In this document: one piece after another, positions 20,127 through 47,102 of the stretch
Layout: every line of letters begins with the position of its first letter
Numbering within the stretch: the stretch's first letter is position 1
From: a phage
Length of the DNA: 64,000 nucleotides
Sequence record: PZ179883.1
Strand: one strand, 5' to 3'
The notes under the pieces: generated by a model
Database searches by the model: none
Told to the model about the DNA's origin: nothing
What the model saw: the letters and a program-made list of their open reading frames with translations, nothing else
Translations under genes and position numbers: made by a program

Positions 20127-20597
20127 TTAATCATGTTTCCACACCCCATCGGTATTTGACCAAAGTCGCTGATTATCTGATCCTCGCCACAGCTTTTTGG
20201 TCGGAAGATTTTTCTCATACTTCCCATCAATAATAACATCAACATATTTAAGCATTTCTAGTTGTTTAATATCTTCAAATTTATATCCTGTCCACAACCA
20301 AATGCTTTTATTGGGATAAAGATTTTTTACTGTTTGAACAATGCAATGAACAACATCTCGGTTATCAGGATAGAGAGGGTCTCCTCCAGTTATAGTTAAT
20401 CCTTCTATATAATCATTATTCAAACATTCAATTAATTGTTCTAGTGTTTCACCAGTGAATGGAACGCCATTTCTAGCATTCCATGTTGATTTATTATAAC
20501 AACCTTCGCATTTATGCAAACAACCTGTAACGAAAAGAACGACCCTGCATCCAGGGCCATTCACAAAATCGCAGGGATAAAATCTATCGTAATTCAT
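20127..20597 (-). CDS. nrdG: Anaerobic ribonucleotide reductase activase NrdG (radical SAM)
   Basis: 156 aa; cysteine cluster GCLHKCEGC; overlaps nrdD stop. Confidence 0.9.
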   Translation of the reverse strand: MNYDRFYPCDFVNGPGCRVVLFVTGCLHKCEGCYNKSTWNARNGVPFTGETLEQLIECLNNDYIEGLTITGGDPLYPDNRDVVHCIVQTVKNLYPNKSIWLWTGYKFEDIKQLEMLKYVDVIIDGKYEKNLPTKKLWRGSDNQRLWSNTDGVWKHD

Positions 20598-22411
20598 TGG
20601 TGTTTAACCCTATGCATGATTTCTTTATTTTTGCCAAGATTAAATCCACGTTCATTCGGATTTCCCAAATAACCACAAGTTCTTCTTATTGTGTTCATCT
20701 TTTTAGGATCAGTTTCTCCACAAATAGAACAAACAAATCCGTTTTCAGTAGGAGTCATTTCATGGGTACTTCCACATGTAAAACATTTATCTACTGGCAT
20801 ATTAACACCAAAATAATCTAAATGTTGTGCAGCATAATCCCATACAGCCTCAAGACCCTTTAGGTTATTTTTCATATCAGGAAGTTCAACATAAGAAATG
20901 TGACCACCTGTCGCAATGAAATGATATGGGGCTTCGCGAGAAATCTTTTCAAATGGAGTAATATTTTCTTCTACTGAAACGTGGAAACTGTTAGTATACC
21001 AGCCTTTATCGGTAACATCTTTTACACTTCCATATTTTTCGGTATCAAGTTTACAGAAGCGATAGCACAGGTTTTCAGCAGGAGTAGAATACAAACTAAA
21101 AGCAAATCCAGTTCTTTCAGTCCACTGCTTAAGACGAGCATTCATTTTAGTTAAAATTTCTTGTCCAATATCACGACCGACAAGAATATTCAATTCGTGA
21201 ATACCGATGTATCCTAGGGACACTGAACTTCTACCGTTTTTAAATAACTCAATTATATCGTCATCAGGTTTAAGACGAACCCCGAATGCACCTTCTTGGT
21301 AAAGAATAGGAGCAACAGTCGCTTTAACTCCTTTTAAGGAACTAATTCTACACATCAATGCTTCAAAACATAAATCCATTCGTTCATTGAACAATTCAGT
21401 AAATTTCTGTTCATTGAACTGTGTTCCAATATAAGAATCTAACGCAATACGAGGAAGATTCAGTGTTACAACGCCAAGATTATTACGTCCATCAAGAATT
21501 TCATTACCAGTCGAATCTTTCCATACACTTAAGAAACTGCGGCAACCCATTGGAGAAACAGGAATAGATGAACCTGTGATAGCTTTATTGTTCTTAGCCG
21601 AAATGATGTCAGGATACATTCTTTTACTTGCACACTCTAGAGCAAGCTGCTTAATATCATAGTTCGGATCGTCTTTATAAAGATTAACACCTTCTTCAAC
21701 GAACATAACAAGCTTAGGGAAAATAGGAGTTATCCCATCACGACCAAGACCTTTAATACGATTTTTCAGAATTGCTTTCTGAATCATTCGTTCAGTCCAG
21801 TCAGTTCCCGTACCAAATGTAATTGTTACAAAAGGCGTTTGTCCGTTTGAACTAAAGAGAGTGTTTACTTCATATTCATAAGCTTGAAATGCATCGTATA
21901 CGTCTTTTTCTGTTTTAGATTGAGCATAATTCAACGCATCAGCGATTTGCCATTTTTCTGCATCCTCAATATGTTTTGCATAGGTGCGTTTAACATAAGG
22001 AGAAAGTACTTTATCTACATTCGCAAAAGTCGTTCCGCCGTATTGATGGGAAGCAACCTGTGCAGTAATTTGTGCCATAATTGCAGTAGCAACGCCAATT
22101 GATTTAGGAGTTTCAATCTGTGCATTACCGAGCTTAAACCCGTTCTCAAGCATTCCTTTTAAATCTACTAAACAGCAATTAGTAAATGGAAGAGCAGGGG
22201 AATAATCAATATCATGGAAATGAATAATTCCGCTTTCATGCGCTTTCATAATAAAAGACGGGACCATATTTTTGGCAATGTGTTTAGACACAATACCAGC
22301 CATAAGGTCCCGTTGAGTTGGAAAAACACGAGAATCTTTATTAGCATTCTCGTTTAAAAGGTCTTTATTAGTTTTATGAATCAATCCTTCAATTTCTTTT
22401 TCAATTGTCAT
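20594..22411 (-). CDS. nrdD: Anaerobic ribonucleoside-triphosphate reductase NrdD, uninterrupted
   Basis: 605 aa continuous ORF; C-terminal glycyl radical region and zinc-ribbon cysteines; no intron-like interruption. Confidence 0.95.
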   Translation of the reverse strand: MTIEKEIEGLIHKTNKDLLNENANKDSRVFPTQRDLMAGIVSKHIAKNMVPSFIMKAHESGIIHFHDIDYSPALPFTNCCLVDLKGMLENGFKLGNAQIETPKSIGVATAIMAQITAQVASHQYGGTTFANVDKVLSPYVKRTYAKHIEDAEKWQIADALNYAQSKTEKDVYDAFQAYEYEVNTLFSSNGQTPFVTITFGTGTDWTERMIQKAILKNRIKGLGRDGITPIFPKLVMFVEEGVNLYKDDPNYDIKQLALECASKRMYPDIISAKNNKAITGSSIPVSPMGCRSFLSVWKDSTGNEILDGRNNLGVVTLNLPRIALDSYIGTQFNEQKFTELFNERMDLCFEALMCRISSLKGVKATVAPILYQEGAFGVRLKPDDDIIELFKNGRSSVSLGYIGIHELNILVGRDIGQEILTKMNARLKQWTERTGFAFSLYSTPAENLCYRFCKLDTEKYGSVKDVTDKGWYTNSFHVSVEENITPFEKISREAPYHFIATGGHISYVELPDMKNNLKGLEAVWDYAAQHLDYFGVNMPVDKCFTCGSTHEMTPTENGFVCSICGETDPKKMNTIRRTCGYLGNPNERGFNLGKNKEIMHRVKHQ

Positions 22412-22921: not shown

Positions 22922-22977
22922 TTTTAAGTATTGTAAAACATTCGATGCAATCGTTTATACTGTCGAATCATCTTTTT
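22922..22977. repeat. Direct repeat copy 1 (about 52 bp) encoding a shared C-terminal tail
   Basis: aagtattgtaaaacattcgatgcaatcgtttatactgtcgaatcatc is about 88 percent identical to the copy at 23139-23190. Confidence 0.6.
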
Positions 22978-23100
22978 AGTAGGACGAGAATAGGTTCCTA
23001 CGCAAGTGGTCATATGAGGGTCCGTAGAATGTCCTTTAATAAAAAGTTTCCAAACCTTACCGCCATTTAACTTTTCAGTATAAACCAATTCGGTTTTCAT
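22924..23100 (-). CDS. Small ORF (58 aa) sharing its C-terminal 14 residues with pin
   Basis: Hand-translated as MKTELVYTEKLNGG...MIRQYKRLHRMFYNT; absent from the ORF track (below 60 aa). Confidence 0.3.
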   Translation of the reverse strand: MKTELVYTEKLNGGKVWKLFIKGHSTDPHMTTCVGTYSRPTKKMIRQYKRLHRMFYNT

Positions 23101-23113
23101 TAAAATGTCCTGT

Positions 23114-23218
23114 CAGAAAAAGAATTTTGAGTTTTTTCAAGTATTATAAAACATTTGATGCAATCGCTTATATTGCCGAATCTTTTGGTCAGAAAAAGAA
23201 ATTTGAGTTTCAAGCCAT
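23114..23218. repeat. Direct repeat copy 2 plus partial tandem re-duplication (cagaaaaagaa-tttgagttt motif twice)
   Basis: Second copy covers the pin 3-prime end; the motif cagaaaaagaattttgagttt recurs at about 23114 and 23188. Confidence 0.55.
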
Positions 23219-23640
23219 TCAATGTACTCTGCGGCAGCTTGCATCAGGTTACCTTCATAGCCATCGTTATTTTCTTGCGCAGCTAATTTAGCTAATGCGT
23301 ATGAAATACGTTCACCTTGAAAAGAGGCTTCAGGCTTCTGAACATCTTGGCTAGTTCTCTCTACAACTTCTTCAATTTCGCCATTTTCGACTGATTCAGT
23401 ATTCCACAAGCACCAATACGTAATTGGCTTATCGTAGATGTTAATAATCTTTCCGTCGGAAAGTTCAATTTCAATAATTCCAGTATCAGGTTCTATATCA
23501 TCTTCACATTCTTTTGCAAGTTCACGAACTTTAAAGACAGTACCTGCACTAAGTTCCGGCCAGTAATTACACAGCCCTATATCAACACGATTAATTCTAA
23601 ACCACTTATCTACTGTAATCATGTCCCATCTCCATATCAA
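23137..23640 (-). CDS. pin: Pin-like protein (protease inhibitor position)
   Basis: 167 aa ORF following gene 49 as in T4; assignment by synteny only. Confidence 0.5.
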   Translation of the reverse strand: MIWRWDMITVDKWFRINRVDIGLCNYWPELSAGTVFKVRELAKECEDDIEPDTGIIEIELSDGKIINIYDKPITYWCLWNTESVENGEIEEVVERTSQDVQKPEASFQGERISYALAKLAAQENNDGYEGNLMQAAAEYIEWLETQISFSDQKIRQYKRLHQMFYNT

Positions 23641-24394: not shown

Positions 24395-24685
24395 TTATTC
24401 CTTAATTCCTAGTACTTGTTTAAAAATCTCGTCATAATCAAGACTTTGGCCCGTTTGTTCTTTATGTTTGTATATAATATCACTTACTTCTGATAGCATA
24501 TTTTTATATGAACGAGTTAAAGCAGATTTAAGCACGCTATATCTATCAGGAAATTTACCATGTTCATTATAATAAGCTATTGCTAATTCACGGACTGCCT
24601 TTTCAGCAGTCTCCATATATTCTTTACGCTTGGTCATTTTCTTCTCGGTTAAATCGGTGTTTGCAATGACGACATTTATATTCAA
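24395..24685 (-). CDS. Hypothetical protein
   Basis: 96 aa ORF. Confidence 0.4.
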
Positions 24686-24941
24686 GCTCTGGTTTACGCC
24701 AGTTAATCAATTGGACCTGTTCAGTACCACATTTTGGGCAGTTCGGAACATTCTTAGAAGCCCTTTCGCGGCGTTCAACCATAACCATAATGGCATCCCA
24801 AGCAGGAGGTTTAAAGTCTAGATCGTCACAGCCATGAATCTTTCCACGCATTTCTAAATCGTCTTCTTCACCAGCCATAATAATTTTAATTAGACTGGAA
24901 TTACTTGAAGCTGCAATATCTTCTAATAAGCGCTTTTTCAT
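24624..24941 (-). CDS. Zinc-ribbon protein
   Basis: 105 aa; CPKC...CRHC four-cysteine ribbon. Confidence 0.45.
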
Positions 24942-25867
24942 TTCAATACCTCAATAGCATTACGTAAACCATTTGCTTTGGCGGTTAAAGCCTTAAGAAC
25001 TTTAGTATGCTCTTCAATCTGTTTTTCAACTTCAATTAAGCGTGTATTAAGATATTCGCGTTCTTCACTCAGGTTATCAATCTTTTCTACTTTAGGTTCT
25101 TTTACAACTGGCTTATATGTATTAGGGTTCTTCAGTTTAATTAGAATGCGTGAACTGTACAGCATTGAACCATTATCTTCGGTTTCGTCATACATTTCCA
25201 CTACGTCCATCATCTCCACCATCGTGCAGAGTTTATAAGACAACGAACGAATAGTTTTGTTGTGCTTATTAATTTCTCTAGCTGTCATGGTGCCGAGATT
25301 ACGTGAGTAATAATAAGGAACCTGGATATTAATTAATACTGATGAACCACCTGGCTTGTGTGTTACTTCATCAGCAATAACCCAGTCCTTAACATGAACT
25401 GTATTTGTACGGTCATCGCCCGCGGTAAATAGTTTACGAGCATGCTTAAAAAGCATATTCACTTGGTCATTGAATTGACAAGCGAATTTATCAGCAAATT
25501 TAGTTTCAGGAATGGTAGATAACCAATCAGCCAAATGGGTCTTTTTAACATCGTTAACAATAGTAAATTCAACCAAATCGGTTATAGATGTCGCAGATTT
25601 AATGAAGCTCGGCTTCATAAAGTTTTTAATGTTATCACTAGCTACAGTAGAAGATAACAGACGAGAACGTTTAAACCATTGAAGCAAATTGCCTAACGAA
25701 TGAGAATAAGCGTTTTGAGTATCTTTACAGATATGATTTTCCTGGCTAACATATTGAAGGAAATCACGAAGAATATTATTAATTACTGCTCTGTGCCCGA
25801 TCTGATAATTACGATGTTTAGTAATAAGACTGTCAAAATAATCAATATAATGTTTACGAGTTTTCAT
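24938..25867 (-). CDS. Coiled-coil-tailed paralog A (unknown function)
   Basis: 309 aa; C-terminal 45 residues are a heptad coiled coil. Confidence 0.5.
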   Translation of the reverse strand: MKTRKHYIDYFDSLITKHRNYQIGHRAVINNILRDFLQYVSQENHICKDTQNAYSHSLGNLLQWFKRSRLLSSTVASDNIKNFMKPSFIKSATSITDLVEFTIVNDVKKTHLADWLSTIPETKFADKFACQFNDQVNMLFKHARKLFTAGDDRTNTVHVKDWVIADEVTHKPGGSSVLINIQVPYYYSRNLGTMTAREINKHNKTIRSLSYKLCTMVEMMDVVEMYDETEDNGSMLYSSRILIKLKNPNTYKPVVKEPKVEKIDNLSEEREYLNTRLIEVEKQIEEHTKVLKALTAKANGLRNAIEVLK

Positions 25868-25919
25868 GTTCTTCTCACTTAGTTAATGATTTATACTCCG
25901 AGCCATCCTTGGCTTTAAA

Positions 25920-26921
25920 TTACTTAATTAACTGTAAAGCTTGTTCAAGACGATCCAGGCGATTAACAGATTCTTCCCAAATCCTTTTAGCCTGTTCATA
26001 TTCTTTCTGCGCTTTATTAGAAATTTCTAGAGCTTCTTTATAAGCTTTTTCTAATGCAATAACTTCTGGACGAATTTCTACCGATTCAGGTGAATCATCA
26101 AGATTATCCATTAGTTCCTCAAGGGTAGTTTCTTCTTTAGGAGTATTCACAATTTCTTCGCATTTTTGTTGGTAAATTTCTTTATCAGTAGGTGAGTACG
26201 CACACTTTACTTCACGAAGACTAACTACAATTTTGTATCCTTCCCAACCGCACACATTCTTAAAAGGATAAGTATGAATATTTTCGACTGTTTCCATACA
26301 AAGTAGTGCAGTCTCTAATTGACGAGTTATATCACTAGCAATTGAGAAAAATTTATTAATGTTCTTTTGATTAGCTTCTGGTGTAAAAAATTCATAATTC
26401 ACAAAAATAGCTGCTTTATTTTTATCAAGCTCATATTCTTTTATGATAATCATATCAGAAGCCCAAGGATGAATTTGACGATAATCACCATAGCATAATT
26501 TAGAAGCTGATTTTAGAATTTGCTTTTTGAAAAGTCTGAAATTACTAATCCAACGACGAGTAAAAATATTCTCAGGGTCTTCTTTATTATTAAGATGATA
26601 AGAATTAACATCACCGAACCAATTATATCCTACTACATCTTTGGTTCGTTTAATTTCTTTCCCAAAATTACCAAGAATATCCTGATTAACTAAATATGAA
26701 AGAAGACGAGAACCTTTAAAGGTTTCCTTAATATCACCTTTATCTTCGCGACTAGAAATTTTATGAACTTCATGAATAAATTTGCTGGAAGAAACAATGC
26801 TTACATCAATATTATTGAGCCATTGATTGATAATGGAAATCACGCTATTCTGACTAGACACAGGTTTAACTTTATCATCAATAACGCTGTTGAATGATTT
26901 GATATATTCATTACGAGTCAT
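25920..26921 (-). CDS. Coiled-coil-tailed paralog B
   Basis: 333 aa; shares an FRxxxKQILKSASKL-type segment with paralog C; coiled-coil tail; own early promoter. Confidence 0.5.
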   Translation of the reverse strand: MTRNEYIKSFNSVIDDKVKPVSSQNSVISIINQWLNNIDVSIVSSSKFIHEVHKISSREDKGDIKETFKGSRLLSYLVNQDILGNFGKEIKRTKDVVGYNWFGDVNSYHLNNKEDPENIFTRRWISNFRLFKKQILKSASKLCYGDYRQIHPWASDMIIIKEYELDKNKAAIFVNYEFFTPEANQKNINKFFSIASDITRQLETALLCMETVENIHTYPFKNVCGWEGYKIVVSLREVKCAYSPTDKEIYQQKCEEIVNTPKEETTLEELMDNLDDSPESVEIRPEVIALEKAYKEALEISNKAQKEYEQAKRIWEESVNRLDRLEQALQLIK

Positions 26922-26944
26922 ATTAATCTCCTCAGTAGAAAGTA

Positions 26945-26985
26945 AGAATATTATACCACATCCCTGTGGTAAAGTAAACTAGTTC
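26945..26985 (-). promoter_or_regulatory. Early promoter upstream of paralog B
   Basis: TTTACT N17 TATAAT on the minus strand. Confidence 0.5.
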
Positions 26986-28001
26986 AGTGCATTTAGTGCA
27001 TTGTTCAGTTTAGAACGTTGCTTCGTGAGATTTTTGACTTTTTCTTGAGCTTTTTCTAGCATCTTTTCAGCTTCTAGCACTTCATTAGTTGCTTTAACGA
27101 GTTCATCATCTACTGCCTTGATAGACTTCTCAATCGCATCTGCATGCCATTTTTCAACAGGTTTAAGACTCGGATTTTCAATAGGAAGAAAATTCACTTT
27201 ATTGAATTTCCATGCATCTTTATTACCTGAACTATACATCCAAAATTTAGGATCGTTTGATGAGTAATTGGATAAATTTAAGTTATCTTGCACTTCCTGC
27301 TTTTTCTCTTGTGTGACTTCGTCCTTTCTCAAAAAATCGTATTTAAATGAAACGATCATATCAAGTTCATATGTTGTTGTATGTTCCCAATTTCGCTCAA
27401 AACGAGGTAAAATCTTAGATTGAACAGCAGCAACAACATCCATATACTTAAATGCTTCTGTTAACTGCGATTTAAGGCATTCACAAATTGAAAGAGAATT
27501 TTTTGTATTAGGTTTAAAGCTAATTCGTGCAGTTCTATTATTTTCTTTTAATGGTCTTACTTCCATCTGAAGAGTATAACCATCAAATTTCAGATTCTTT
27601 AAGTTAATATCAGAACCTTTTAATCGACTAGCCGTCGACAAAATTTGCTTTAATTGTCTACGGAACAGAGCAATAAATCTCCATTCAATACGATAATGAT
27701 TTGGATTGAAAAATCCAGATGATAAATCGACCTTACTTTGACCAACGCCTTGAACAAATAGAGGATTTTTATAATCAATAGTTTTACAGAAATCGGTGAG
27801 CTGTTCACGAGCAGTCATTTGTGTAATATACCCTGCTTTACTAAAATTACGCACCCATTCACTGCTATTCGTATACTTAAAGTGATGAATAACACGATTA
27901 ACTTTATCAGGGTCTAAATTATTTTCACACAAAAATGTCATAACATCACGAGTATAGCTGGCATTACGAACCATATCTTCAATTTGAGAACGAGTTTTCA
28001 T
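26979..28001 (-). CDS. Coiled-coil-tailed paralog C
   Basis: 340 aa; similar architecture; coiled-coil tail. Confidence 0.5.
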   Translation of the reverse strand: MKTRSQIEDMVRNASYTRDVMTFLCENNLDPDKVNRVIHHFKYTNSSEWVRNFSKAGYITQMTAREQLTDFCKTIDYKNPLFVQGVGQSKVDLSSGFFNPNHYRIEWRFIALFRRQLKQILSTASRLKGSDINLKNLKFDGYTLQMEVRPLKENNRTARISFKPNTKNSLSICECLKSQLTEAFKYMDVVAAVQSKILPRFERNWEHTTTYELDMIVSFKYDFLRKDEVTQEKKQEVQDNLNLSNYSSNDPKFWMYSSGNKDAWKFNKVNFLPIENPSLKPVEKWHADAIEKSIKAVDDELVKATNEVLEAEKMLEKAQEKVKNLTKQRSKLNNALNALN

Positions 28002-28009
28002 GGTGTTCC

Positions 28010-28897
28010 TTAAGATTTAAGTAAATCAACGATTTTAATTAATTTTTCACGCTCAGATTTAGCTTTACTACTCAATCCAGATAGTCTGAAAATTTCATCA
28101 TCATATTGCTGAATAGAAATATTTAGCTCTTCAATCTGCTTATTAAAATAAGCAATTTGTTCAGAATGTTTTTCATTACTGCGAACTGGTACAGGTTTTG
28201 TAGGTAATTTAGTTGAACTGGATTCATCTGGGCGATAAATTAAAATACAACTTGAACCGATAGGGCATTTTGCACCAGATGAATATTCTAATGTTCCAGC
28301 TTCTTTTAAAACTTCAAAAGCTAAACAGAGATGATGCCCCATATTAACATAATCTGTAGAGCGAGCTCTGATGTAATAATCATCTCCACGAGTACTAAAT
28401 TTAAAGCATTTAAGGTCTTCTGTATTATTGGTCTTAAAAATCATTTGTTTATCTAGACCTTTAGCTAATCGAGCGCCTAATGCTAATAATCGTCGTTGAT
28501 TTTCCCACAAATCCGCTATCATTTGGTCAAATGATAATTTCGGCATTAGTCGACCATAAAGGTCATATCCTTTATTATAATTGCGAAGGATTTCACTCGC
28601 ATTAATACGAGACAACGCTCCAATTTTATTAAGGGCTTTCATGATGCGATTAGATAAACCCATTCCAGATCCGTTTGTTCGTTGCAAATGTTTATCTAAT
28701 CCAAACCCAATATCAACTTTAAATTTATCTAAAATTTCAGCATGAACATCTCTGTCAATAACATTCAAATCCAAAGTTGGGTTAAATCTATGAAAAAATT
28801 TATCTGGCTCTCCACGACGAAGTACAGTCCATTCATTTAATTTTTTATTAACTAAAGATTTAATTACTGCATTGACATTATTAATTACTACTGACAT
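28010..28897 (-). CDS. Coiled-coil-tailed paralog D
   Basis: 295 aa; RRLLALGARLAKG segment parallels B/C; coiled-coil tail. Confidence 0.5.
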   Translation of the reverse strand: MSVVINNVNAVIKSLVNKKLNEWTVLRRGEPDKFFHRFNPTLDLNVIDRDVHAEILDKFKVDIGFGLDKHLQRTNGSGMGLSNRIMKALNKIGALSRINASEILRNYNKGYDLYGRLMPKLSFDQMIADLWENQRRLLALGARLAKGLDKQMIFKTNNTEDLKCFKFSTRGDDYYIRARSTDYVNMGHHLCLAFEVLKEAGTLEYSSGAKCPIGSSCILIYRPDESSSTKLPTKPVPVRSNEKHSEQIAYFNKQIEELNISIQQYDDEIFRLSGLSSKAKSEREKLIKIVDLLKS

Positions 28898-28908
28898 ATT
28901 TTTCTCAC

Positions 28909-29313
28909 TTAATTTTCAATTTTACTAAATACACAGAATATGATGGAAAAGACTATATAAGCACCGCATACAGATTGAACTAATACCATTCCAAAGAACC
29001 AAACAATATTATCAAACAATGTCTGTTTTACGTCGAAAGGACGTAAACTTACAGTAATATTATCACCTTTTTCTATTGAAGAATACATCTCTGGGGAAAT
29101 ATATTCACTAAATCTATAACCGTCTTTGAGTTCATATACAGCAATAAACGATAAACTAGACCCCTTTCCTTGAGTTCCTGTAATAGTATTAACTACAGTA
29201 ACATCATAATCTTTATAATGCATATAATCATTAATAGCATAATAACCATATGCAACTACTACACATAAACAACATATCAATAAATTCAATCTTTTAATTA
29301 TCAACTGTTTCAT
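28909..29313 (-). CDS. Membrane protein (two transmembrane helices)
   Basis: 134 aa with hydrophobic N- and C-terminal segments. Confidence 0.45.
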   Translation of the reverse strand: MKQLIIKRLNLLICCLCVVVAYGYYAINDYMHYKDYDVTVVNTITGTQGKGSSLSFIAVYELKDGYRFSEYISPEMYSSIEKGDNITVSLRPFDVKQTLFDNIVWFFGMVLVQSVCGAYIVFSIIFCVFSKIEN

Positions 29314-29368
29314 AATAATCTCAATTAAAAGGGCTTAGAACCATTATACCATCCTTGGTATAAAGCGG

Positions 29369-29896
29369 TTATGCGAGTACCGTCTTTAACCGTTCTTCAA
29401 ACTTCCGAAGAGTATTTTGGCGTTCAGCTCTTTGCTTTTTGTAAGTTTCAATACGCTCTGAAATGAGAGAGTATCGTTCATTTACTGATTCTTTCATAAA
29501 ATCAGGAATTTCACGAGAAGCTTTAATCTCGTCAAATTTATCAATAACAGCTTGCTCTTCAGCAATTAAGTTATCATACATTAAAATATCTTTCTTGATG
29601 AACTCAATATCTTCTTGAGTTACACGAGACATTTTAGATGCTTTATCCTTTTTGTACTGTTCGTTAGTATCACGAGACCAGTGTAATGTACGATTTTTAT
29701 TCGTATTCTTGTAAATTTCTACAATACCGATCTCATCAATAATAACGATCCAATTCCAACGGGATTTGTAAATTTGTCCTCCATCAACAGTGATTTCACC
29801 TCCGATTGAGATGTCGTTAAAGAACTTGCTTTGCGCTTCAGATTTAAATTTGCCATCGTTGTAATTTACCAAGTTGAAAATATCTTTAGCGTTCAT
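29369..29896 (-). CDS. Hypothetical protein with C-terminal coiled coil
   Basis: 175 aa; first ORF after an early promoter. Confidence 0.45.
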   Translation of the reverse strand: MNAKDIFNLVNYNDGKFKSEAQSKFFNDISIGGEITVDGGQIYKSRWNWIVIIDEIGIVEIYKNTNKNRTLHWSRDTNEQYKKDKASKMSRVTQEDIEFIKKDILMYDNLIAEEQAVIDKFDEIKASREIPDFMKESVNERYSLISERIETYKKQRAERQNTLRKFEERLKTVLA

Positions 29897-29920: not shown

Positions 29921-29960
29921 TTGTATAGTACCACAGAGGAACAGTCTTGTAAACCACTAA
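29921..29960 (-). promoter_or_regulatory. T4-type early promoter
   Basis: TTTACA N17 TACTAT; same core as the 5305 copy. Confidence 0.6.
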
Positions 29961-45350: not shown

Positions 45351-45944
45351 TTATTTCAGAGAATTAATGTATTCCTGAACATCAGCAGAGGTAGTTTCAA
45401 CCCCAGAAATATTACCGTTAAAGGTTTCAACTCGAGCAAGGGTATCTTCAATATCAACCTTAGTCAGTGCTGCAATTTCAACTACATCATCGGCAGTACT
45501 AATTCCAAGGGCATTTGCTGCACGAGTTTCACGGATATATTCCAATTTAACCGCAAGTTCTTGACGAGCATCATCTAACTCAACTACTTTCTTGGCGATT
45601 TCAATTCGCATTTCAGCATAACCGTCAGCCTTAGTAGTCAACTGCTCAGCTGTTCGACGATATAGTAAACCGAGTTTAGCATGCATTGTTACATCTTGGC
45701 CTTCGGAAAGAAGTTTACGAATTTCACGCTCTTTTGATTCGGCCTGTCGATTCTTTTCGATAACAAGTTCACGAATACGTTTTTCTTCGTTAATAGATTT
45801 AACAGAAGCAGTTTTTAGATCTTTAATTTTATCAAGTAGTTTTGCTGCTGCAGCAGTATACTGTTCTTCGACAGATAGATTTTTAGCCATAGCAGAACCA
45901 AGTTTAGTGCGAATAAACTCAACAATTTTCTTCAGTGTGTTCAT
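45351..45944 (-). CDS. Coiled-coil protein, possibly PspA/IM30-like
   Basis: 197 aa, almost entirely helical heptads; general resemblance to PspA; weak. Confidence 0.3.
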
Positions 45945-46538: not shown

Positions 46539-47102
46539 TTATTTACCTAGTTTACTTATTATAGCTTCTGCAGCAGCTTTTAGCTTAGATGCAGTGTTAA
46601 TACGATTTTTAATTTCAGTATACGCATCGCCAAGAACATCAAGGCTATCAGAATAAACACTTACACTATTGCGTTCGCTATTTGAAATAGAACCTTTAGT
46701 TTTGCGGTCAAAATCGGTGTACACGTCTTGAAGATCGCGGGCTGCCTTCTTTGCATCATCCAATGCATCAAGAGCTTTATTCAAAGCATTAACGTATTTT
46801 TTAGTGTCGAACATATTCTTAGAAATTTTAACAGGTGCGCGTTCAGGAGTAGCTAACACAGATTTAGGAACCTGAGCGCCAGATGCCAATTTCTTAGAAA
46901 TTTTGAAAAATGCTTTATTGAATTTATTTTCTTGACTCATTGTAAAAGAACTATTATCGATGTTGTACATTTCAATAGCTTTAGCTTTCCACTTAAGAAA
47001 ATCGCCGCGGTCTTTTGGGTCCAATTGGAAGAATACTTTAGTAAGATCTGCTTCAGATGGTAATTTTGCTGCTTCGGTTAAAAATTCGGCATAGGTTTTC
47101 AT
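46539..47102 (-). CDS. Internal protein with capsid-targeting leader (possibly IPIII-like)
   Basis: Begins MKTYAEFLTEA; 187 aa, close to T4 IPIII size. Confidence 0.55.
   Translation of the reverse strand: MKTYAEFLTEAAKLPSEADLTKVFFQLDPKDRGDFLKWKAKAIEMYNIDNSSFTMSQENKFNKAFFKISKKLASGAQVPKSVLATPERAPVKISKNMFDTKKYVNALNKALDALDDAKKAARDLQDVYTDFDRKTKGSISNSERNSVSVYSDSLDVLGDAYTEIKNRINTASKLKAAAEAIISKLGK

Follow-up and report, generated by a model that had tools for sequence, protein, structure and literature searches.

Four divergent tandem paralogs of a T4-like phage, nrdC.3 to nrdC.6, share an architecture and a heptad-patterned C-terminal tail and include the published anti-Dsr1 gene

The closest described counterpart of the locus considered here is the T4 gene nrdC.5. 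Srikant, Guegler and Laub (2022; PMC9391042) reported that a T4 clone without nrdC.5 fails to plate on ECOR17 or on MG1655 carrying ECOR17 dsr1, that plasmid-expressed T4 nrdC.5 restores plating on MG1655 with dsr1, and that the gene was lost in laboratory evolution. Dsr1 is a NADase with a SIR2 domain; its TPR sensor is reported to recognise phage major capsid proteins, and Avs families are described as recognising tail terminators (PMC12803255, a 2026 preprint). nrdC.5 is treated in PMC9391042 as a single uncharacterised early gene; in the DNA analysed here, PZ179883.1, it is one of four tandem paralogs, nrdC.3, nrdC.4, nrdC.5, and nrdC.6, which are anciently duplicated copies of one gene family. 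The whole stretch of 64,000 nt, referred to below as the window, is from a Tequatrovirus (a T4-like phage) and has about 97% DNA identity to Tequatrovirus genomes; the 4,959-base stretch holding the array is 96-97% identical to that of many T4-like coliphage genomes. The genes of the array region map one to one onto T4 nrdC.3-nrdC.8 by synteny and T4 annotation, and the array lies between nrdC and nrdC.11, with the nucleotide-metabolism genes nrdD, nrdC, and tk around it. An earlier note on this DNA had described five open reading frames (ORFs) ending in coiled coils as a tandem family of divergent paralogs, and all five sit exactly where it placed them, on the minus strand. Their products were labelled A to E in coordinate order (A, nrdC.3; B, nrdC.4; C, nrdC.5; D, nrdC.6; E, nrdC.8), and identity to the respective T4 proteins was 62%, 89%, 96%, 87%, and 98%.

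Pairwise searches were of little use at this depth of divergence. BLASTP among the array proteins gave A-B as the only significant pair (E 1.7e-8, 26% over 226 residues); the null result for the other pairs reflects a method that is too insensitive and is not evidence against homology. Family profiles were therefore built from database homologues and compared by hhalign. A and B were joined at 97% probability (E 1.9e-11), and B and C, with shallow profiles, at 55% over 251 colinear columns, with the FRxxLKQIL segment aligned. Once the syntenic nrdC.5 proteins of Gaprivervirus and Dhakavirus (20-28% identity to C) had been added, the A+B profile matched C at 95-96% (E 5e-9 to 2e-8) over about 250 colinear columns, in an alignment that reached the last residue. 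The merged A+B+C profile aligned colinearly with D at a score of 36.2 (E 3.3e-4), about 10 standard deviations above a null of 14.1 +/- 2.2 (maximum 21.2) obtained with column-shuffled D (n=60), and the FR...LKQIL motif was in register in both the B-C and the B-D alignments. All four proteins carried three motifs in one common order, with the tail after them: M1 (FK.SRLLS......I..F.K), M2 (F+..LK.IL..A.+L..GD), and M3 (.L..A...M..V). The FRxxLKQIL-S-ASKL/ARLAKG segment that the earlier note had seen in B, C, and D is real; it is one of the three colinear motifs and is present in A as well, as NMLFKHARKLFTAGDD. The N-terminal parts, which had been described as variable domains, are not unrelated to one another; they are divergent but homologous over the whole length of the proteins.

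Predicted structures agreed with the profile comparisons. The AlphaFold2 (AF2) model of B (pLDDT 84.7) has a helical N-terminus (residues 1-85), an alpha/beta core (86-240), a low-confidence linker (about 241-284), and a terminal helix (285-332), and the model of D (pLDDT 79.7) has its secondary-structure elements in the same order: N-terminal helices, a short beta segment, a helix pair with M2, a beta hairpin, a long helix with M3, another beta hairpin, a linker of low confidence, and one or two terminal helices. The linker is rich in Pro, Lys, and Glu in A and D. A Foldseek search of BFVD with the B model returned nrdC.3 (E 7.5e-8) and the nrdC.6 protein of phage JS10, the latter over full length (E 5.9e-5). 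Both models also matched a common set of BFVD proteins about 300-335 residues long, which come from the Acinetobacter phages Acj61, Acj9, and fHyAci03, Klebsiella phage Mineola, Enterobacter phage IME523, and Pectobacterium phage PM2. The four proteins are thus one fold superfamily of paralogs, and confidence in the paralogy and architecture of nrdC.3-nrdC.6 is high. The common layout is that of a soluble protein of about 300 residues in which an N-terminal helical bundle is followed by an alpha/beta core carrying M1-M3, a disordered linker, and an amphipathic heptad helix of 45-55 residues. The proposal that these are diversified paralogs is supported, and the early region in which they lie is plastic.

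The fifth ORF, nrdC.8, which had been counted with the others, showed no homology to them. Against every family profile E gave hhalign scores of 12-18, inside a shuffled null of 14.1 +/- 2.8; the gene was therefore dropped from the family, and its interpretation as a truncated member was rejected. A family hidden Markov model (HMM) scan found no further copies elsewhere in the window. The behaviour of nrdC.8 bears on the reading that small genes with no relationship to one another, each ending in an amphipathic helix, have come together here by chance. Such a reading would fit the silence of BLASTP for all pairs but A-B, the presence of such a tail in nrdC.8 without homology, and the heptad-tailed scores of two unrelated window genes outside the array; it is contradicted for A-D by the profile-profile, shuffled-null, and structural evidence, which joins them over full length, and by the three colinear motifs that they have in common. 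It is considered extremely improbable as an account of the array and stays the working description for nrdC.8.

The C-terminal tails were scored with a home-made measure of a/d occupancy against a null of 200 shuffles per protein. A single heptad register, with a/d positions mostly L, I, V, or A, runs over the last 40-55 residues of A-E (a/d string of the E tail, VYIIYRRLFLV), in agreement with the 40-50 residue coiled coil that had been predicted at each end, and AF2 models B and D as helical there. The observed score was reached by 0.000-0.010 of shuffles for A, C, D, and E, and by 0.08 for B, a marginal value explained by a core rich in Ala. The D tail was modelled as two helices (residues 245-271 and 277-294) with a break at a conserved Ser-Gly. 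In a scan of the last 45 residues of all 84 putative window genes, six scored as heptad-patterned and four of these belong to the array; the D tail falls just outside the 45-residue limit. The other two, at 45351-45944 (197 aa) and 46539-47102 (187 aa), both on the minus strand, have heptad-like C-termini; M1-M3 were absent from them by eye, and the family HMMs gave no match.

The tail is also the best-conserved region between genera. In comparison with Gaprivervirus and Dhakavirus orthologues, the B tail was 61-65% identical and the rest of the protein 37-55%; between genera the corresponding values were 60-69% and 26-49% for D, and 29-35% and 16-27% for C. A, B, and C terminate in L-x-x-A-[IL]-x-x-L-[KN], D ends differently (LLKS), and the A-C orthologues of other genera keep L-x-x-A-[IL]-x-x-L-K, as does a member from an Acinetobacter phage (IDILEETIKILSK). 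The heptad tails of the array are real and not a chance pattern. That they act as an oligomerisation module is put at about an even chance. A different use of the same helix, as a common docking or hetero-oligomerisation element through which the paralogs co-assemble or bind one adaptor, would account for the keeping of the extreme C-terminal motif although identity over the rest of the sequence is down to 13-25%, since a plain homo-coiled coil would need the heptad pattern alone, and the paralogs appear to be co-expressed from the same early region, as judged from matches to promoter consensus. It is nevertheless judged distinctly unlikely: phages with a single copy exist (Konradin), so that hetero-assembly among paralogs is not required, the D tail is split into two helices with a different end, and no candidate partner was identified.

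In the T4 reference genome (NC_000866) nrdC.6 is annotated with 275 aa, its tail having been lost by a 1-nt deletion (T4 reads GAGCTGATATT where the window has GAGCTAAATATT). The frameshift was placed by comparing T4 (L001, 11997-12150) with the window (28010-28170), and the +1 frame of T4 still codes for the full tail, ending in ISIQQYDDEIFRLSGLSSKAKSEREKLIKIVDLLKS. The deletion is either a real frameshift or a sequencing error.

The distribution of the family was examined in several collections. A search of 1.84 billion representative proteins with the A+B profile gave 10 matches at E<=1e-3, with no match outside the family and no cellular relatives by sequence. Searches of a phage collection by tblastn matched 654 records with A, 554 with B, 587 with C, and 742 with D. 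Gene order nrdC.8-D-C-B(-A) was constant in 20 loci of the family HMM scan, nrdC.8 stood immediately upstream of the array in 18 of the 18 scanned T4-like loci with an array, and in the genomes compared the array was always just upstream of nrdC. Copy number ranges from one to four per genome, with four in Tequatrovirus and three in Gaprivervirus and Dhakavirus; nrdC.3 is specific to Tequatrovirus. The Acinetobacter phage Konradin (Lazarusvirus) has what is apparently a single member of 343 residues beside a glutaredoxin-related gene, the counterpart of nrdC; M2 and M3 are recognisable in it, and its tail is the Acinetobacter phage end given above. A scan of IMG/VR for arrays gave 13 loci, mostly known isolates. 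The nrdC.3-6 superfamily appears to be confined to Straboviridae. In Klebsiella phage KPV15 (L007, 15950-16923), gp114 (175 aa, GTG start) matches the M3 region (E 3.8e-4), has a helical tail, and overlaps the preceding 149-aa gp115 by 4 nt; the two may be a split or frameshifted full-length member.

Variation within the family was found both as divergent alleles and as deletion products. Among the 654 phage records, nrdC.3 fell into classes of about 93-100%, 74-78%, and 61% identity to A; 354 records were at least 90% identical, and 291, T4 among them, were 60-80% identical. Divergence from T4 is concentrated in the middle of the protein, with 86% identity over residues 1-65, 49% in the central domain, and 89% in the tail. 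Synonymous divergence (dS) follows the same outline, with values of 1.32 for the central block, 0.16 for the tail, and 0.12-0.27 for adjacent genes, and dN/dS, the ratio of nonsynonymous to synonymous divergence, is 0.33 in the central block. Since this block alone has synonymous sites close to saturation, the divergence was attributed to an old allele moved in by recombination, and positive selection in place was rejected. nrdC.2 (24624-24941; dS 0.64) forms with nrdC.3 a mosaic block older than its neighbours. Within the genus, B, C, and D vary most in the linker and at about residues 20-60 of the N-terminal bundle. Manna and ACG-C40, which are viable phages, carry deletion products between paralogs: in Salmonella phage Manna (L005, 4215-5252), Manna_094 is an in-frame D(1-268)::B(251-333) fusion of 345 aa with nrdC.5 deleted, and in phage ACG-C40 (L004, 4805-5216) only an out-of-frame nrdC.5(1-68)::nrdC.3(236-309) remnant is left. 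The database protein P0056 is a C(146-275)::A(137-309) chimera, and nrdC.4 is split into two ORFs in phage G8 (L011).

With C so close to T4 NrdC.5, whose gene overcomes Dsr1, the array can be read as a group of defence inhibitors expressed early, in which the heads have diversified and a shared tail probably oligomerises, a reading that is slightly favoured; an anti-defence role for the whole array is given roughly even odds. Its genes would be transcribed right after infection from predicted T4-type early promoters. Each head, made up of the N-terminal bundle and the alpha/beta core, would bind a different host defence sensor or effector, with the Dsr1 SIR2 NADase as the presumed target of the NrdC.5 head, and the shared tail would oligomerise the protein or dock it on a common partner, giving higher avidity for oligomeric defence proteins. 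The repertoire may be changed by duplication (as with the Tequatrovirus-specific nrdC.3), by replacement of central-domain alleles through recombination between conserved ends, and by deletion or fusion of neighbouring paralogs. What we infer in this scheme is that the proteins bind their targets directly, that the other three copies differ in target, and that the tail mediates oligomerisation.

Several observations weigh against the scheme. An experimental phenotype exists for only one of the four paralogs, and the effect of nrdC.5 on Dsr1 could be indirect. All pairwise dN/dS values are below 1 (0.15-0.32 for A-D; 0.09-0.46 in comparison with T4), with no direct sign of positive selection. 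The variable parts differ by paralog, lying at residues of about 20-60 and the linker in B, C, and D and in the central domain in the nrdC.3 alleles. The T4 reference nrdC.6 lacks a tail, which implies that the tail is dispensable for laboratory growth, and the sequence link of D to the other proteins is weak (hhalign probability 14-38%). The arms-race idea of the earlier note, with specificity variants on a common tail, stands in part: it is consistent with the published counter-defence role of nrdC.5 against Dsr1 (PMC9391042), with the conservation of the tail between genera, and with deeply diverged nrdC.3 alleles that vary mainly in a central domain between conserved ends. A match to characterised T4 nrdC.x proteins had been named as a ground for discarding it; the genes are indeed T4 nrdC.x, but only nrdC.5 has a known function. 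No function was reported for nrdC.3, nrdC.4, nrdC.6, or nrdC.8 in the literature searched, where PMC9391042 alone assigns a function to one of the genes.

The main rival would make the paralogs accessory factors of general host takeover or of metabolism, all working on a single machine of the host or the phage. The anti-Dsr1 effect would then be indirect, for example through a shift in when the trigger appears or in how much of it there is, or through NAD-related physiology. What has been published consists of genetic complementation only, the conservation of the tail motif and M1-M3 across all paralogs fits a common partner, the array stands among nrdD, nrdC, and tk, and dN/dS is below 1. Loss, fusion, and frameshifting of these genes in viable natural phages and in laboratory evolution are, however, typical of host-specific accessory genes, and the deep divergence of nrdC.3 alleles within one genus is hard to fit to a single conserved target. 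This alternative was rated as rather unlikely, and a set of defence inhibitors was retained as the preferred reading.

Coordinates of the array genes, motifs, tails, and promoter candidates are collected in Table 1.

Table 1. Features of the nrdC.3-nrdC.8 region in the window (position 1 is the first letter of PZ179883.1)
Feature	Position	Strand	Basis and remarks
A, T4 nrdC.3 orthologue	24938-25867	-	ORF, 309 aa; T4 synteny; full-length match to phrog_1435
B, T4 nrdC.4 orthologue	25920-26921	-	ORF, 333 aa; full-length match to phrog_1435
C, T4 nrdC.5 orthologue, published anti-Dsr1 gene	26979-28001	-	ORF, 340 aa; Pfam DUF7235
D, T4 nrdC.6 orthologue	28010-28897	-	ORF, 295 aa; full-length match to phrog_2257; most divergent member
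nrdC.7 orthologue, non-member	28909-29313	-	134 aa, hydrophobic; phrog_2547; between nrdC.8 and array
E, nrdC.8 orthologue, no detectable family membership	29369-29896	-	175 aa; phrog_2274; heptad tail
A motif M1	25610-25675	-	
A motif M2	25412-25465	-	
A motif M3	25190-25252	-	
B motif M1	26655-26720	-	
B motif M2	26484-26543	-	
B motif M3	26277-26339	-	
C motif M1	27780-27845	-	
C motif M2	27609-27671	-	
C motif M3	27423-27488	-	
D motif M1	28568-28633	-	
D motif M2	28451-28510	-	
D motif M3	28289-28351	-	
A heptad helix, residues 264-309	24941-25078	-	a/d string LRLLVIHLLALIL; shuffle fraction 0.005
B heptad helix, residues 285-333	25923-26069	-	a/d string VLYASAYAWSLLLI; AF2 single helix 285-332
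C heptad helix, residues 286-340	26982-27146	-	a/d string AIIVLAVALAVLRLLL; no shuffle reached the observed score
D helical tail, residues 244-295	28013-28168	-	a/d string HIFILIYILSARLVL; two AF2 helices
Candidate T4-type early promoter upstream of nrdC.8	29925-29953	-	GTTTACA-N17-TACTAT with TG; consensus match only
Candidate T4-type early promoter upstream of nrdC.4	26950-26978	-	GTTTACT-N17-TATAAT; consensus match only

C matched Pfam DUF7235 (PF23882) over model positions 1-307 of 307, scoring 436 bits where the cut-off is 30 (E 8.6e-131); A, B, and D had no direct match to that model. Homologues 96-97% identical to B carry a precomputed PF26897 label, as does the chimera P0056, of which the C-terminal 60% is nrdC.3, and homologues 96-98% identical to D carry the label PF26899. 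No enzymatic or known domains were detected in the array proteins by Pfam, NCBIfam, and PDB sequence searches, and sub-threshold matches in these searches (designed helical repeats, DUF3905) were rejected as noise. A resemblance of A residues 30-86 (25610-25780) to an XerC/XerD-type N-terminal SAM-like domain (NCBIfam E 5e-4 with 19 bits, the cut-off being 279; Pfam E 0.08) was rejected as probably noise as well. nrdC.7 is a predicted membrane protein in the T4 annotation and is missing from the Gaprivervirus and Dhakavirus arrays. Orthologues of nrdC.3-nrdC.11 are called 'thioredoxin' in very many GenBank phage records, apparently from the gene name nrdC.x, and a Pfam search found no thioredoxin domain in them; PMC13275509 calls nrdC.8 a 'nucleotide reductase' purely on the strength of its name.

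Both promoter candidates fit the T4/PST early-promoter form TTTACW-N17-TAYWAT given in PMC4122927, and the nrdC.4 candidate has a stem-loop between its hexamers (stem TACCACA/TGTGGTA). The promoter and stem-loop candidates of the array resemble the promoter-early stem-loop (PeSL) elements that Comeau and co-workers (PMC4122927) associated with gene shuffling in plastic T4-like regions. Early-promoter-like hexamers and short stem-loops (TACCACAGGGATGTGGTA, TACCAAGGATGGTA, GCCAAGGATGGC) were seen in the array gaps 26950-26978, 29925-29953, 29314-29368, and 25868-25919. In the gap before nrdC.7, a GCTTTA box lies 12 nt ahead of TATAAT and resembles a MotA-dependent middle promoter.

Two neighbouring loci of the window were also recorded. 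Adjacent minus-strand ORFs of 58 aa (22924-23100) and 167 aa (23137-23640) have near-identical end peptides, IRQYKRLHRMFYNT and IRQYKRLHQMFYNT. The 167-aa ORF is at the position of T4 pin, the Lon inhibitor, where two or three tandem 'protease inhibitor' genes are annotated in the related phages IME281 and Konradin, and the pair looks like a second small paralog array next door. nrdD (20594-22411) is one unbroken 605-aa ORF in the window; T4 nrdD is split by a group I intron with I-TevII, and mobC lies just downstream, between nrdD and nrdG.

Comparison with described systems places the array near several of them. T4 NrdC.5 (DUF7235) is the direct counterpart of C, which is orthologous to it by identity, genome position, and full-length match. 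PF26897 (nrdC.3/nrdC.4 type) and PF26899 (nrdC.6 type) are catalogued separately and without function, and the profile and structure comparisons made here join both with DUF7235. DSAD1, an inhibitor of the DSR2 SIR2 defence, is alike in phenotype, being a phage protein that counteracts a SIR2-domain NADase whose sensor domain is large; a shared fold or sequence was not found between DSAD1 and the array proteins. The internal proteins IPI, IPII, and IPIII of T4 are likewise diversified and dispensable, act against host-specific defences, and move between related phages by shuffling (PMC9391042; PMC4122927), but an N-terminal targeting sequence directs them into the virion, from which they are injected, whereas the nrdC.3-6 proteins are without such a signal and would be made after injection from candidate early promoters; no sequence relationship between the two groups was seen. 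The tail terminator or tail completion fold (lambda gpU, DUF3168, SPP1 gp17-like) may resemble the array proteins, in topology only, with no sequence-profile match in Pfam or NCBIfam at E up to 1, and differs in that nrdC.3-6 are genes of the early region and not of the tail module and have an extra N-terminal bundle and a coiled-coil tail. In a further reading, the alpha/beta core would be a soluble early copy of a tail-terminator-like virion fold, a decoy oligomerised by the coiled-coil tail that plugs the repeat-type sensors of pattern-recognition defences, Dsr1 and Avs among them, ahead of the real late structural proteins. Such a decoy is held to be quite improbable; if it existed, each paralog or allele would be tuned to a different sensor, and the array would equip T4-like phages with a general toolkit against defences by pattern recognition.

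The genes themselves and the nrdC.5 phenotype were already known. Not found in the searchable literature were the union of nrdC.3-nrdC.6, which fall in three Pfam families, into one superfamily, their shared architecture and conserved tail, the cassette-like alleles of nrdC.3, and the spread of the family across Straboviridae. These results suggest that the three separately catalogued families be merged and that the widespread 'thioredoxin' mislabelling be flagged. Phage counter-defence genes still turn up singly, and nrdC.5 has three neighbouring paralogs, deep alleles, and relatives across Straboviridae; nrdC.3, nrdC.4, and nrdC.6 are therefore good candidates for new immune inhibitors and make a short, concrete list to set against other defence systems, while the array offers natural head-swap and tail-swap variants for dissecting specificity. 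Set beside the systems compared above, the array is an extension of a known system type, moderately interesting more than surprising.

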